In this document: piece by piece, positions 11,181-15,428 of the stretch
Layout of the letters: the number at the start of each line of letters is the position of its first letter
How positions within the stretch are numbered: the first letter of the stretch is position 1
From: Rhodobacterales bacterium
GTDB lineage: Bacteria > Pseudomonadota > Alphaproteobacteria > Rhodobacterales > CAZPXZ01
Assembly: GCA_965217995.1 (NCBI GenBank)
Contig: CBDCKB010000004.1
Coordinates: 1,283,788-1,347,787 of the forward strand
Length of the DNA: 64,000 nt
Direction: 5' to 3'
Notes under the pieces: model-generated
The model's database searches: none
Told to the model about the DNA's origin: nothing
What the model saw: the letters and a program-made list of their open reading frames with translations, nothing else
Translations under genes and position numbers: made by a program

Positions 11181-12119
11181 ATGATCGATCTGACGCTCGC
11201 AGAGACTCCTTCCAATCCGGCCCCCCCCGGCGGGTACTGCTTTGCCGTCGACACCGCGGACGGGTTGGTCCTGCGCGCCGCAGTCTGGGAGGCGCCTGCC
11301 ACGAAAGGGACGACGATTGTCTATCCCGGCCGCGCGGAGCCGATCGAACTCTATTTTCCGGTCATCCGGTTTCTGCTTTCGCTCGGCTGGTCCGTAGCCG
11401 CTGTGGACTGGCGCGGCCAGGGGCGCAGCACGCGGGTTCTGCCCGACCCGCGCAAAGGCCATGTCAAAAGTTTTCTGGAATACCAGCAGGATACCGCAGC
11501 CTTGCTGGCTGCGCCCGGGATCGCGGCCCTGCCACGGCCACGTGTGCTCGTCTGCCATTCCATGGGAAGTGCCATCGCCATCCGCCAGCTCTCGGCGCAG
11601 CCGGATGCCGCCGATGCCATGGTGCTCTGCGCACCGCTTTTGCAGCTGCGGTTTGGTCGCGTCGGCAATCTTCTTCTCTGCGGCCTCGCCCGCCTGATAT
11701 CCGGAATGGGTGGGGAAAACCGCTATGCCAGCATCCGGGGCGGGACATCTGTTGCGCAGATGGGATTTCCGGGCAACCCCCTGACCGGGTCGCCGGAACG
11801 CTTCGCGGTCCTTCAGGAAATCGAGGAAACGATCCCGGGACTCGCCATCGGCGGTCCAAGCTGGGCCTGGCTCCGGGCCTGGTATCGGGACGGTGCCGAA
11901 TTGCGCCGGCTGCCGCCTCCGACGGTGCCGGTTCTGTTGCTGGTCAGTGCCCGGGACCGGGTGGTCGCGCCGGGGCCGGTGGTGGAATTCGCCCGGCGGA
12001 CCGCGAAATCCCGCCTCCTTGTGCTGGAGGAAGGCGAGCACAGTCTGCTGATCGAACGGGACGGGATCCGCGATCCGGTTCTCATGGAGATAGCCGGGTT
12101 TCTCAAAACATTCGCCTAG
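11181..12119 (+). CDS. Alpha/beta hydrolase (lysophospholipase-like)
   Basis: C-terminal part of ORF 10950..12119. It has the nucleophile elbow CHSMGS, plus DWRGQGRS and a late EGEHSLL. The start is ATG 11181 (alternative 11142). Confidence 0.75.
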   Translation: MIDLTLAETPSNPAPPGGYCFAVDTADGLVLRAAVWEAPATKGTTIVYPGRAEPIELYFPVIRFLLSLGWSVAAVDWRGQGRSTRVLPDPRKGHVKSFLEYQQDTAALLAAPGIAALPRPRVLVCHSMGSAIAIRQLSAQPDAADAMVLCAPLLQLRFGRVGNLLLCGLARLISGMGGENRYASIRGGTSVAQMGFPGNPLTGSPERFAVLQEIEETIPGLAIGGPSWAWLRAWYRDGAELRRLPPPTVPVLLLVSARDRVVAPGPVVEFARRTAKSRLLVLEEGEHSLLIERDGIRDPVLMEIAGFLKTFA

Positions 12120-12841
12120 GTGTGGAAGTTCATCTGGTTGCCCTCGTCCAGCTCCGGTCGGCTGATGGATGTCTGCTTTTCAGGCGGTCGTGAGGTCGGT
12201 GCCGGTTGCAACGATGAAACCGGTCGGATCGTTGCGGGGAGATCGGGCAGGTGGCCGCATAGGCCATTTCTTGGGGGCGGTCTGTATGTAACGCCCGGCC
12301 TTGTCGTGGATGCCCGGGGGGAGGAGCGCGACGGATATGGCAGATGTCGGGGCCGGTGCTGCGTTGCGGCAGACTCTGGAGGGAGCGCCGGATCCGTCGG
12401 CGGTCGTGAGACGCTCAATGGGGAGGTCGAAATTCGGGCAGCCGGCGATCACAACCTCAAGAAAGGCGTTGCGGATCAAGCGGTTTCGCCGGGCATCCTC
12501 CAGCACCGGACATCAAGGCGGGCCCGGCCCGAACCGCTCCGGAGCGGCGGATTTGACACCTCGGGAGAGATTTGTAATTTCCCCACCATGACTGATGCAC
12601 CGAGCCCCGGGGAATCGCGCATGGACGGTCCGTCCGCCCGCAAACCCCACCCTGTCCTCACTCCCGCAGCACAGCGGGCGTGCGGCTTGCTGCATGCATC
12701 GGCAGCACCTCCCGTACCGGAACCATCGCCGGTCGTCCGGGACCGCCTGCTCCCACCAGGGTCGGCGGATTTCGGACCAGCGGCTGGTGCAGGTGTTTCT
12801 GCCCGCAACAGGCCCGCCCAAACGCAGCGACACCCAAAAAG

Positions 12842-13939
12842 ATGGTATTTCCAATGGCCTCAGGACAGCAATCTCAGGCAACCTTTCGGCACAAACCCCG
12901 GCATGATGCCTGTTACAAGCAGCTCTTTGACCATGCGGTGGTGGTCAAAGATCTGATCTCCGGATTCATAGCTCCGCATCTGAGTGATAAGTTTAATTTT
13001 TCCACACTGGAAAAAGTCCCGTCCTCTTACGTAAGCAACAGCCTGAAGCAGCGTCACATCGACCGGGTCTGGCGCGTCCGCCTTCGTGGCAGCGGCCGGT
13101 GGCTGTACATCCTGCTGGAATTCCAGTCCACGGTCGATCTGCTCATGGGGGTGCGCATGCTGACCTATATCGGGCTGCTGTATGAGGATATTTGCCGGAA
13201 CAAGGCGAATCTCGGGCCGCAGGGCGAACTTCCGGAGATATGGCCGATTGTTCTCTTCAACGGCGACACGCCGTGGACTGCACCGCTCACTATCAATGCG
13301 GTGGCACTGACCCGGGGCGATGGGCATCGGGATCAAGTGTTCCCGGAGTATTTTGTGTTCTGCCAACAGGAGTATCCGTTGGACGATTTGCCACCGGACA
13401 ATGTTGTATCGCTCCTGATCAGACTGGAACGAATACCCCGGTCCGGCGCACCGATGGACCAGCTGCTGGATGATATCAGGGCATGGTTACGGAAATTTGA
13501 CAAGGATGATTACACCCGGCAGAGTCTCATCAGGGCGATTAGCAACTGGGTTGGGGAGTATCTGATGCTGAAAGACAAAATTGACTCCAGTCTTGATCCG
13601 TGGGATCAGCTGGAGCGGATGCAGAACCTCGCGATGAATTGGGAAGCCCCGGAATGGGCGCAGGGATGGCTTGAGGAAGGGCTTGCGAAAGGCCGGACGG
13701 AAGGCCGGACGGAAGGGATCGAGGAAGGGATCGAAAAAGGCCGGACGGAAGTGCTGGGGGCAATTCGGAAGAGTCTGTACCTTCAGGCCGGGTCGAGATT
13801 TGATCCGGAAACGGTCGGCCGGCTGACCCAGCATCTGGATCAGGTATCCGATCCGGAGCGGCTGTTGGAGATTTCCGGGAAGATCCACGAAGGCGCAACC
13901 TGTGCCGCGCTTCTCAAATGTCTCAAAAACCGATCATAG
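12842..13939 (+). CDS. Rpn-family recombination-promoting nuclease (YhgA-like PD-(D/E)XK, annotated 'putative transposase' in some databases)
   Basis: ATG 12842 within ORF 12680..13939. The N-terminal half (HDACYKQLFDH..VVKDLISGF...IDRVWRVRL...WLYILLEFQSTVD..MGVRMLTYIGLLYE...LPEIWPIVLFNGDTPW) matches the Rpn/YhgA-like nuclease core pattern. The C-terminal third is a separate Lys/Glu/Arg-rich domain. Confidence 0.85.
   Translation: MVFPMASGQQSQATFRHKPRHDACYKQLFDHAVVVKDLISGFIAPHLSDKFNFSTLEKVPSSYVSNSLKQRHIDRVWRVRLRGSGRWLYILLEFQSTVDLLMGVRMLTYIGLLYEDICRNKANLGPQGELPEIWPIVLFNGDTPWTAPLTINAVALTRGDGHRDQVFPEYFVFCQQEYPLDDLPPDNVVSLLIRLERIPRSGAPMDQLLDDIRAWLRKFDKDDYTRQSLIRAISNWVGEYLMLKDKIDSSLDPWDQLERMQNLAMNWEAPEWAQGWLEEGLAKGRTEGRTEGIEEGIEKGRTEVLGAIRKSLYLQAGSRFDPETVGRLTQHLDQVSDPERLLEISGKIHEGATCAALLKCLKNRS
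13553..13567 (+). promoter_or_regulatory. Internal Shine-Dalgarno-like GGGGAG plus in-frame ATG inside the rpn gene (candidate RpnS-type internal start)
   Basis: GGGGAG at 13553-13558 lies 6 nt upstream of the in-frame ATG at 13565 (codon 242 of 365). The identical element (14018-14032) precedes the free-standing duplicate ORF. Confidence 0.35.
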
Positions 13940-14029
13940 TCGATCGGATGCTCCTTTGCGGCCCATGAGGATGATTTCACCCGGCAGAGTCTCGCCAGGA
14001 CGTTCAGCAACTGGGTTGGGGAGTATCTG

Positions 14030-14440
14030 ATGCTGAAAGACAAAATTGACTCCAGTCTTGATCCGTGGGATCAGCTGGAGCGGATGCAGAACCTCGCGAT
14101 GAATTGGGAAGCCCCGGAATGGGCGCAGGGATGGCTTGAGGAAGGGCTTGCGAAAGGCCGGACGGAAGGCCGGACGGAAGGGATCGAAAAAGGCCGGACG
14201 GAAGGGATCGAAAAAGGCCGGACGGAAGGGATCGAAAAAGGCCGGACGGAAGTGCTGGGGGCAATTCGGAAGAGTCTGTACCTTCAGGCCGGGTCGAGAT
14301 TTGATCCGGAAACGGTCGGCCGGCTGACCCAGCATCTGGATCAGGTATCCGATCCGGAGCGGCTGTTGGAGATTTTCGGGAAGATCCACGAAGGCGCAAC
14401 CTGTGCCGCGCTGCTCAAATGTATCAAAAACCGATCATAG
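14030..14440 (+). CDS. Free-standing duplicate of the Rpn C-terminal domain (136 aa)
   Basis: MLKDKIDSSLDPWDQLERMQNLAMNWEAPEWAQGWLEEGLAKGRTEG... is collinear with Rpn residues 242-365. It keeps the SD-like GGGGAG upstream and contains three GIEKGRTE units where the parent has EGIEEGIEKGRTE. I cannot tell from sequence whether it is expressed or is only a duplication remnant. Confidence 0.55.
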   Translation: MLKDKIDSSLDPWDQLERMQNLAMNWEAPEWAQGWLEEGLAKGRTEGRTEGIEKGRTEGIEKGRTEGIEKGRTEVLGAIRKSLYLQAGSRFDPETVGRLTQHLDQVSDPERLLEIFGKIHEGATCAALLKCIKNRS

Positions 14441-14591
14441 TCGATCGGATGCTCCTTTGCGGCAGGCGGGGTAGATGTGTTGCCGGCCCGAATCAAAAAT
14501 GCCCTCCAACCATCCTGAAGTAGGGCGGGCATAAAACCGAACCCAGGCACTGATGGCGACGGTCAGGGCCGAATGGCGACCTGCTGGCAGA

Positions 14592-15428
14592 TCACACCTG
14601 GGCCTCTCCGGCGGCGGCGAGTTTTGCCATGGCCAGCTGGTGGAATTCCCGGCATCCGGCCGCGAGCACCCGGCCGCCACCGGCACAGTCGCTTCCGTCC
14701 CAGCCGGTGATGACGCCACCGGCCCCCTCTACCACGGGTATCAGCGCTGCGACGTCATAGGCCTGCAATCCTGATTCGACCACGAGATCAAGATGCCCGT
14801 CGGCGAGGAGCGCGTATTGATAGGCGTCACCGCCATGCCGACTGAGTCTGCATTCTGTCTCCAAGGTGCGGAAGGCGTGGCAATCTGAAGCTGTTGCGAA
14901 AGCGTCGGGATGTGTGGTGGCGATCACCGCCTTCGGAAACCCGGTGCAGGAGCGGGTCTGCATCCTCCGCGACCCGTCGCGGCCGGAAAATCCAGATTCC
15001 CGGGTCGGGTCGTTTGTAATTCCCCAATACCGTTCGCCGATATAGGGCTGGTCGATCACGCCGAGGACCGGCCGGGTGCCTTCCTGCAGGCCGATCAGAA
15101 TCGTCCAGAGCGGGAATCCGGCGATAAAGGAGCGGGTGCCGTCGATCGGGTCGATCACCCAGGTAAGGCCGCTGCGACTCTCGGAATTTCCGAATTCCTC
15201 GCCGATGATTCCGTCGTCCGGGCGGATTCGGGCCAGGGCTTCGCGGATTGCCAGTTCGCTCTCCCGGTCCGCGGCCGTGACCGGATCGAAGCCGCTTGCG
15301 TCCTTGTTTTTGACTTCCAGGCCGATGGTCCGGAAATGGCGTAGGGCGGGCTCCGCGGCAGCCTCCGCGAGTTGCCCGGCAACGGCAAGAAGTTCCCGCG
15401 CGGCGCGGGCCGAAATTTTTTGCGCCAT
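14592..15428 (-). CDS. Inositol monophosphatase-family protein (possibly histidinol-phosphatase HisN)
   Basis: Start at MAQKISARAARELL (15428) within ORF 14592..15659. IMPase motifs are present (DPVTAADRESE, WVIDPIDGTRSF, DVAALIPVVEGAGG). Confidence 0.8.
   Translation of the reverse strand: MAQKISARAARELLAVAGQLAEAAAEPALRHFRTIGLEVKNKDASGFDPVTAADRESELAIREALARIRPDDGIIGEEFGNSESRSGLTWVIDPIDGTRSFIAGFPLWTILIGLQEGTRPVLGVIDQPYIGERYWGITNDPTRESGFSGRDGSRRMQTRSCTGFPKAVIATTHPDAFATASDCHAFRTLETECRLSRHGGDAYQYALLADGHLDLVVESGLQAYDVAALIPVVEGAGGVITGWDGSDCAGGGRVLAAGCREFHQLAMAKLAAAGEAQV

Follow-up and report, generated by a model that had tools for sequence, protein, structure and literature searches.

The large product of an rpn gene, RpnL, is a toxic endonuclease that is blocked by RpnS, a small protein translated from an in-frame internal start (Zhong et al. 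2023, PMC10400941). The long first helix of RpnS holds a tract of four-amino-acid repeats, beginning 8-20 residues past the initiating Met, whose number varies between strains and tunes the pairing; one more repeat in RpnC-S abolishes the neutralisation of RpnC-L, and plasmid-borne Rpn gives protection against phage (PMC10400941). RpnS is also encoded 'as a separate gene', as in ypaA (rpnESs) downstream of rpnE and rpnCSs downstream of rpnC. These separate rpnSs genes arose independently, by duplication from their own upstream gene, and can be lost, either through deletion or by becoming fused to the rpn N-terminal domain; ypaA is expressed, its protein has been detected experimentally, and in some species the separate rpnSs genes are annotated as DUF4351 (PF14261) (PMC10400941). 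The ends of rpn genes are described as variable, with none defined, and the discussion of the same paper proposes that RpnL itself may promote such recombination events (PMC10400941). Here I describe an rpn gene that is followed by a tandem duplicate of its own 3' end, in a stretch of 64,000 nucleotides (nt) from a Rhodobacterales bacterium (assembly GCA_965217995.1, contig CBDCKB010000004.1), which as a whole is called the window. The locus is a further example of the layout already described for rpnE-ypaA, not a new kind of system. The initial annotation of this stretch correctly described the work of the Storz laboratory on rpn toxins and RpnS, which is the paper of Zhong and co-workers, and read the locus as an intragenic antitoxin copied out into its own gene; the architecture supports this, but the arrangement had already been reported in that paper, which the annotation did not mention.

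In E. coli K-12, the sequence of which I examined directly, the 3' end of rpnE is repeated in tandem as ypaA, at offsets of 183 and 195 nt. The ypaA duplicate begins at the Shine-Dalgarno (SD) sequence (AAAAGGAGAGATTAATG), carries the copied SD and ATG and has one additional unit (KLEG); the gene is flagged as a pseudogene in NC_000913.3. The window shows the same design, as the duplicate lies in tandem on the same strand and runs from just before an internal SD and ATG to past the stop codon, each offset is divisible by three (183 and 195 nt there, 465 and 501 nt here), and the copy differs in its number of four-amino-acid units (one more there, three more here) while the flanks of the tract are near-identical. 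In contrast to E. coli, the duplicated unit is 2.5 times longer here (124-136 versus 57-61 amino acids), since its internal start is placed further upstream and additional helices are present in the C-terminal domain; the two C-terminal domains have no detectable sequence similarity; the copy number here varies from one to three among strains and loci; and the module is part of a cassette whose ends are fixed and whose leader is conserved. As in RpnA-L/RpnA-S (structure 7TH0), an N-terminal PD-(D/E)XK domain with a D...ExQ motif is combined with an internal start before a helical C-terminal domain, and a hypervariable four-amino-acid tract lies inside a long helix. The likeness to stand-alone DUF4351 (PF14261) proteins is that small proteins equal to the Rpn C-terminal domain, often after repeats of the G-x-E-x type, occur apart from the nuclease. 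My estimate of the probability that this is an Rpn toxin-antitoxin module of three parts, as in E. coli, is roughly 0.72.

All coordinates below are those of the window, whose own copy of the locus is denoted W. A repeat search and pairwise alignment show that 13503-13962 recurs at 13968-14463 as a direct tandem repeat:

13503-13962, plus strand: copy 1 of the duplication, comprising the rpnL 3' end and 23 nt beyond the stop codon
13963-13967, plus strand: junction filler CCATG, 5 nt, between copies 1 and 2
13968-14463, plus strand: copy 2 of the duplication, placed by repeat search and alignment

Block 1 (13503-13728 against 13968-14193, 226 nt, 96% identical) has an offset of 465 nt, or 155 codons, and block 2 (13723-13962 against 14224-14463, 240 nt, 99%) one of 501 nt. 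The offset changes at the 12-nt (four-amino-acid) repeat tract, where the pairwise alignment places a 36-nt insertion in copy 2, corresponding to three additional 12-nt units. Outside the tract the copies differ by nine substitutions: in the coordinates of copy 1, six fall within 13512-13540, none within 13541-13722, and one each at 13875 (S to F), 13912 (synonymous) and 13922 (L to I). The motif GGGGAG, followed by 6 nt and ATG, occurs twice, at 13553-13567 within rpnL and at 14018-14032 in the copy. Most of what the initial annotation had said about this region is hereby borne out: a tandem duplicate of the last ~460 bp with an offset of 465 bp (to which the post-tract offset of 501 nt is to be added), an identical SD-like GGGGAG 6 nt before an ATG in parent and duplicate, which can be read directly from the sequence, and copies that differ by S/F, L/I and repeat number.

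The order hydrolase gene, rpn, small open reading frame (ORF) and inositol monophosphatase gene is common to L001, L002, L070 and L071, four contigs of one metagenome that together with W make up the locus 1 set; the paralogous loci are locus 2 (L072/L073), a third (L156) and a fourth (L157). The junction GCGGC-CCATG-AGGATGATTT is the same in W, L001, L002, L070 and L071, and a homologous junction is present at loci 2 and 3. As all contigs of locus 1 have the same junction, the duplication predates strains of which the RpnL proteins differ by up to 17%. It might be argued that the duplication was made by the assembly, through chaining of strain variants with differing repeat numbers, as the region contains 12-nt tandem repeats and several of the related contigs are covered only 2x-3x. 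However, five contigs, among them some covered 14x to 19x and the 2.37-Mb NCBI/ENA contig, carry the unique CCATG junction together with its diverged leader remnant, and the paralogous loci have homologous junctions. An artefact is excluded by this unique junction common to independent contigs, and I consider it extremely improbable.

The in-frame offset could also serve read-through of the rpnL stop codon, which would yield an RpnL with two C-terminal domains. The rpnL stop and the copy indeed share a frame with no other stop between them, the spacing is in frame at loci 1 and 3 and in E. coli rpnE-ypaA, and proteins with two or three tandem C-terminal domains occur elsewhere. The copies of locus 2, however, lie 61 or 64 nt apart in different frames, the spacer of L001 contains an in-frame TAG, and in-frame spacing follows from the length of the ancestral duplication in any case. 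A role for read-through is therefore very improbable, and read-through fusion as a conserved feature is rejected on the frames of locus 2 and the TAG of L001.

The upstream gene is the nuclease:

12854-13939, plus strand: rpnL, Rpn/YhgA-like PD-(D/E)XK nuclease, putative toxin, 361 amino acids, assigned by PF04754 and by BLASTP to RpnE
13061-13063, plus strand: catalytic-motif codon of rpnL, D70
13118-13120, plus strand: catalytic-motif codon of rpnL, E89
13124-13126, plus strand: catalytic-motif codon of rpnL, Q91

The start is most likely the ATG at 12854, with an alternative ATG upstream at 12842. The latter had been chosen in the initial annotation, giving a protein of 365 amino acids, whereas the homologues and the source annotation start at 12854, and the resulting 361-residue RpnL is identical to P0170, a protein called in the NCBI/ENA record on the 2.37-Mb contig. 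Residues 20-218 match PF04754 (YhgA-like) with 74.5 bits against a cut-off of 21 (E = 1e-20), and BLASTP aligns the N-terminal 130 residues with E. coli K-12 RpnE (E = 6e-11), pairing 'HIDRVW ... LLEFQS' of RpnL with 'YSDVLW ... VIEHQS' of RpnE. The score against the narrower NCBIfam model TIGR01784 is 33.6 bits, under its cut-off of 52.1, so that the assignment to the Rpn family is based on Pfam and on the BLASTP match with RpnE. The catalytic motif is intact, and an alignment of 121 homologues shows no variation at D70, E89 or Q91. An AlphaFold2 model of RpnL (mean predicted local distance difference test, pLDDT, of 81) has an alpha-beta-beta-beta-alpha-beta core in the order of PD-(D/E)XK enzymes, with D70 where beta-2 begins and E89/Q91 on beta-3, while the C-terminal third is helical with the repeat tract within a helix. 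A Foldseek comparison of this model with the PDB gave no significant match. From these profile and alignment matches the large ORF is an Rpn/YhgA-like PD-(D/E)XK protein, in agreement with the identity first proposed for it (74.5 bits for PF04754, E = 6e-11 for RpnE).

Within the region of the nuclease domain, differences among strains and paralogues are concentrated at 13220-13620. Over 12854-13560 an excess of third-position changes is absent (codon positions 32/36/23), and the variation has the appearance of exchanged mosaic blocks and not of point divergence.

The C-terminal end of rpnL and the copy contain the following elements:

13553-13567, plus strand: internal SD-like GGGGAG, 6-nt spacer and in-frame ATG (Met238 of 361 amino acids)
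13565-13939, plus strand: internal rpnS frame, 124 amino acids, predicted gene-within-gene antitoxin, from its collinearity with the 136-residue ORF and by analogy with PMC10400941
13673-13750, plus strand: four-amino-acid repeat tract of rpnL and rpnS, EEGLAK GRTE GRTE GIEE GIEK GRTE
14018-14023, plus strand: SD-like GGGGAG of the free-standing copy
14030-14440, plus strand: rpnSs, free-standing copy of the Rpn C-terminal domain, 136 amino acids
14138-14251, plus strand: repeat tract of rpnSs, with three more four-amino-acid units than the rpnL tract
13930-13947, no strand assigned: 7-bp hairpin over the rpnL stop codon (CCGATCATAGTCGATCGG), within the duplicated unit
14431-14448, no strand assigned: identical hairpin over the rpnSs stop codon, followed by a T-run on the minus strand

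The 136-residue ORF aligns with the final 124 residues encoded by the large ORF, so the collinearity with the C-terminal end of Rpn that was noted initially is confirmed, and its product is identical to P0121, a protein of the same 2.37-Mb NCBI/ENA contig as P0170. The repeat units are GRTE, GIEK, GIEE and GLAK, in a pattern of G, one hydrophobic residue or R, and E, K, T or A. The models of the small protein (pLDDT 63) and of the RpnL C-terminal domain are all-helical, with the tract in a helix, and in the small protein an additional N-terminal helix precedes the tract. The scans reported no plus-strand terminator-like site separating rpnL from the copy, and no promoter-like site for the small gene either, so that rpnL and rpnSs are likely co-transcribed. 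Both stop-codon hairpins are terminator-like on the minus strand only. The second of them is located 144 nt downstream of the convergent inositol-monophosphatase gene (stop codon 14592-14594) and could terminate that gene.

The number of downstream copies differs between loci. Locus 1 has a single one, except for L070, which has two (L070:5249-6145); locus 2 has two or three (L072:6100-6970; L073:6136-7337), each with its own repeat tract, L156 has one and L157 two. The small-gene copies of loci 1-3 have in common a non-coding remnant from the junction to the ATG, which makes the duplication older than the spread of the module to those loci. The internal SD and ATG of rpnL are conserved at loci 1-3, and none of the 20 C-domain copies in the eight loci compared (W, L001, L002, L070, L071, L072, L073 and L156) lacks an SD, an ATG or an open frame. 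L157 (5001-7514, the same as L158) shows a different pattern: in its RpnL the internal-start Met is replaced by Lys (EVLEKSEAID), both downstream copies begin with Met, and the antitoxin there may be made from separate genes only. As the duplicated unit of L157 takes in the cassette tail, this duplication was independent.

Beyond these loci, a family search of 1.84 billion representatives yielded 229 proteins at E <= 1e-10, and among the best 150 of these 229 matches the nuclease domain is missing from 96, and two or three tandem C-domains are present in 13. Stand-alone proteins related to rpnSs fall into 27 clusters, with intact ORFs and 40-97% identity. ORFs with only the C-domain also follow full rpn genes directly in distant relatives (L004, L010, L025, L026, L034, L043 and L052), mostly metagenome-assembled genomes of Vicinamibacterales. 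A profile scan of species-representative genomes found only relatives of at most 41% identity, with none added by a protein-only scan, so that the duplication could not be traced in named genomes. Proteins with two or three tandem Rpn C-terminal domains and no nuclease domain were seen at L027:7737-8654 (= L052:6935-7852) and in P0294, P0296, P0301 and P0303.

Parent and copy do not differ evenly along their length. The first 59 nt of the duplicate contain six differences, the other 373 nt outside the tract three (Fisher p = 3e-4). Across loci, the small-gene copies read 'WVGEYL-M-LKDKID' with GGGGAG, 6 nt and ATG, whereas rpnL of loci 2 and 3 and of L002 reads 'WFKEYL(K/T)-M-E(S/D)KID' with AAGGAG, 9 nt and ATG. 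The window-type rpnL carries the small-gene (Ss) type, 'WVGEYLMLKDK', from ~13541 on, and the small gene of L002 carries the rpnL-type (L-type) block; the Ss block in the one and the L block in the other show that conversion has run in both directions at locus 1. The coding parts of the copies cluster with the rpnL of their own locus. On this pattern, gene conversion homogenises the coding parts of rpnL and rpnSs, and the copies differ chiefly in repeat number. The initial expectation that the duplication would let the two C-terminal domains diverge is thereby contradicted, as there are no differences in 13541-13722 and the coding parts are homogenised.

The repeat number, in contrast to the remainder of the coding sequence, is highly variable. 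Tract length, taken as the amino acids between GW[LI] and VLG, is given below for rpnL, followed by its copy or copies:

W: 26 / 38
L001: 42 / 34
L002: 34 / 18
L070: 50 / 29 / 42
L071: 14 / 30
L072: 30 / 26 / 10
L073: 14 / 22 / 14 / 10
L156: 14 / 10

At locus 1 alone the rpnL tract measures 14, 26, 34, 42 and 50 amino acids in five syntenic contigs.

In the three-part module that I favour, rpnL would encode a PD-(D/E)XK DNA endonuclease toxin with a C-terminal helical domain bearing the four-amino-acid tract (12854-13939), and translation from the internal SD and ATG at 13553-13567 would give RpnS, which consists of the C-terminal domain only. RpnS would inhibit RpnL by binding it with the helix that bears the repeats, and this 124-residue internal product would be the cognate antitoxin, with a tract that by construction equals that of RpnL. 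The free-standing rpnSs goes back to an ancient tandem duplication of the final 460 nt, with SD, ATG, stop codon and hairpin included, and its 136-residue product would be another antitoxin-domain protein, encoded separately. Parent and copy continue to recombine, through gene conversion and unequal crossing-over, which homogenises the coding sequence, shifts the copy number between one and three and lets the repeat number drift independently in each copy. The toxicity of RpnL, the translation of both small proteins, the neutralisation and a role against phage are in this scheme supposed by analogy with the systems of PMC10400941.

Several observations weigh against this reading, and they concern first of all the C-terminal domain. 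A search of the PDB with its sequence profile gave no match to the RpnA-S structure 7TH0, and neither did a Foldseek search with the small-protein model (pLDDT 63), which matched no PDB entry. PF14261 (DUF4351) has no Pfam match in the window protein or its 27 close relatives and is matched only by two distant members of the C-domain alignment; hhalign of the post-repeat part of the domain against DUF4351 gave E = 0.089, and a local iterative hidden Markov model (HMM) search from the domain never recruited DUF4351 carriers. Compared with stand-alone DUF4351, the window domain is thus to be regarded as a different C-terminal type within the Rpn family. No link to DUF4351 or RpnA-S emerged from the Pfam, hhalign, iterative HMM and PDB profile searches, and the domain is therefore not assigned to PF14261. 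Furthermore, the repeats begin at residue 37 of the small protein, 36 past its Met, as opposed to the reported 8-20, and the scan found no promoter-like site for the small gene. The locus is situated among housekeeping neighbours outside any defence island, which also sets it apart from RpnA-L/RpnA-S, and PADLOC reported no match at it. The ratio of nonsynonymous to synonymous substitution rates (dN/dS) of the C-domain is about 1 (0.6-1.7) in embedded and free copies alike, and purifying selection on the copy can therefore not be shown. Finally, the first downstream copy never has the tract length of its own rpnL (8/8 loci). In the window rpnSs is three units longer than its parent, and since a mismatch of one unit breaks the pairing of RpnC (PMC10400941), neutralisation of the neighbouring RpnL by the 136-residue protein is uncertain.

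The dN/dS values and the lack of a detected promoter could also mean that the downstream ORF is a functionless, decaying by-product of unequal crossing-over, the more so as the copy matches no Pfam family and ypaA itself is annotated as a pseudogene in NC_000913.3. However, ORF, SD and ATG are intact in 20/20 copies, 27 protein clusters extend down to 40% identity, and tract indels are in frame in every copy. The upstream non-coding remnant has diverged, with an in-frame TAG in L001, yet the ORF remained open, and the protein of ypaA was detected experimentally (PMC10400941). Also the embedded copy, which is certainly functional, has the same dN/dS, and fast protein evolution is on this comparison a property of the C-domain and not a sign of decay of the copy. 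I consider a mere by-product improbable.

Alternatively, rpnSs could be chiefly a donor cassette, providing C-terminal domains with other repeat numbers. Conversion or unequal crossing-over would swap its tract into rpnL and the internal RpnS at once, switching the specificity helix in one step. This is a serious rival, compatible with the three-part module and not exclusive of it, though on its own I hold it to be rather unlikely. The difference in tract between rpnL and the first copy in 8/8 loci fits a donor, as does the one-unit mismatch that breaks neutralisation in E. coli (PMC10400941), the Ss-to-L conversion in the window rpnL together with its reverse in L002, and the arrays of up to three copies, each with a different tract. 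On the other hand, every copy has an SD and an ATG, which a silent donor does not need, and ypaA is expressed in E. coli (PMC10400941). The unequal tracts are also statistically unremarkable by my estimate, given lengths of 10-50 amino acids, and one distal copy of L073 equals its rpnL in tract length. Conversion, moreover, is to be expected between tandem repeats of any function.

The rpn locus is carried in an inserted interval, 12120-14594, between the stop codons of two convergent housekeeping genes, with a GC content of 59% against 64.7% for the window. Besides the genes described above it consists of:

12120-12547, plus strand: left segment of the cassette ('A'), variable, non-coding
12553-12853, plus strand: rpnL leader, highly conserved, non-coding, starting with TTGACA (12553-12558), 16 nt and TAATTT (12575-12580)
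14441-14594, plus strand: cassette tail, with right end ...CTGGCAGATCA, which abuts or overlaps the convergent inositol-monophosphatase stop codon (14592-14594)

The left end, GTGTGGAAGTTCAT, comes directly past the stop codon (12117-12119) of the alpha/beta-hydrolase gene and recurs in L156 in another chromosomal context, and the right end, CTGGCAGATCA, recurs in L156, L157 and L073, each time beside unrelated flanks; in the relatives the cassette spans L073:4695-7794, L156:4259-6535 and L157:4700-7640. The initial proposal of an accessory insertion thus holds, as 12120-14594 recurs with the same ends beside unrelated flanks. In L072/L073 the order is permuted: the equivalent of window 12548-14594 is followed within 4 nt by that of window 12122-12531, which joins the right end to the left, and a direct repeat of ~45 nt, ending in GGGTTTGAC, flanks the whole. 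This circularly permuted paralogue suggests a circular or concatemeric intermediate. A search for an empty site found none, the metagenome contigs with the neighbouring inositol monophosphatase giving no relative above 53% identity and an exact-protein look-up giving the already known contig only.

The leader has a mean column identity of 96% over eight copies from four paralogous loci including L157, and is far more conserved than the coding sequence, as the RpnL of L157 is only ~46% identical. Its variable sites have no coding periodicity (codon positions 16/13/14), and an RNA structure is weakly supported (z = -1.5, one compensatory pair); there was no match in Rfam, and a 32-mer scan of viral contigs with the leader gave no match either. 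The conserved TTGACA-16 nt-TAATTT at its start would be promoter-like, but the promoter scan reported no site there. In segment A about 30% of the sites are variable among six copies, again with no periodicity (38/41/45). An ORF of 278 amino acids on the plus strand, 12120-12956, overlaps the start of rpnL and is annotated as a 245-residue gene on related contigs. It matches no family, lacks coding periodicity and is broken by a 1-nt indel among close strains; it is probably not a gene. The absence of any other convincing coding sequence, as first stated, thus agrees with the variable sites of 12120-12853, which lack codon periodicity and include this 1-nt indel among close strains. The best named matches of the neighbouring ManC-like protein are about 57% identical to it, and no rRNA gene was found within the window.

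The additions made here to the published picture are modest, namely the two-way conversion, the mismatch in repeat number, the conserved leader, the fixed ends and the permuted paralogue. More speculatively, the ~2.5-kb interval with its fixed ends and leader could be a cassette inserted at at least four intergenic sites, with the rpnSs array serving as a recombination reservoir that re-tunes repeat number and pairing specificity. I regard this combination as quite unlikely, but if it were true, rpn genes would gain a defined mode of movement and a built-in mechanism for generating diversity, neither of which has been shown for the family.

With this locus the published rpnL/rpnS/rpnSs design reaches beyond the Enterobacteria to a high-GC proteobacterial lineage with another type of C-terminal domain, in support of the view that copying out an intragenic antitoxin is a recurrent, general move in the evolution of Rpn. 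The five strain variants at one locus and the three paralogous loci form a natural series, with one to three copies and tracts of 10-50 amino acids, which could be used to ask what the role of the separate copy is, given the reported break in pairing upon repeat mismatch. The conserved leader and the fixed ends of the cassette, in turn, bear on how rpn genes move.

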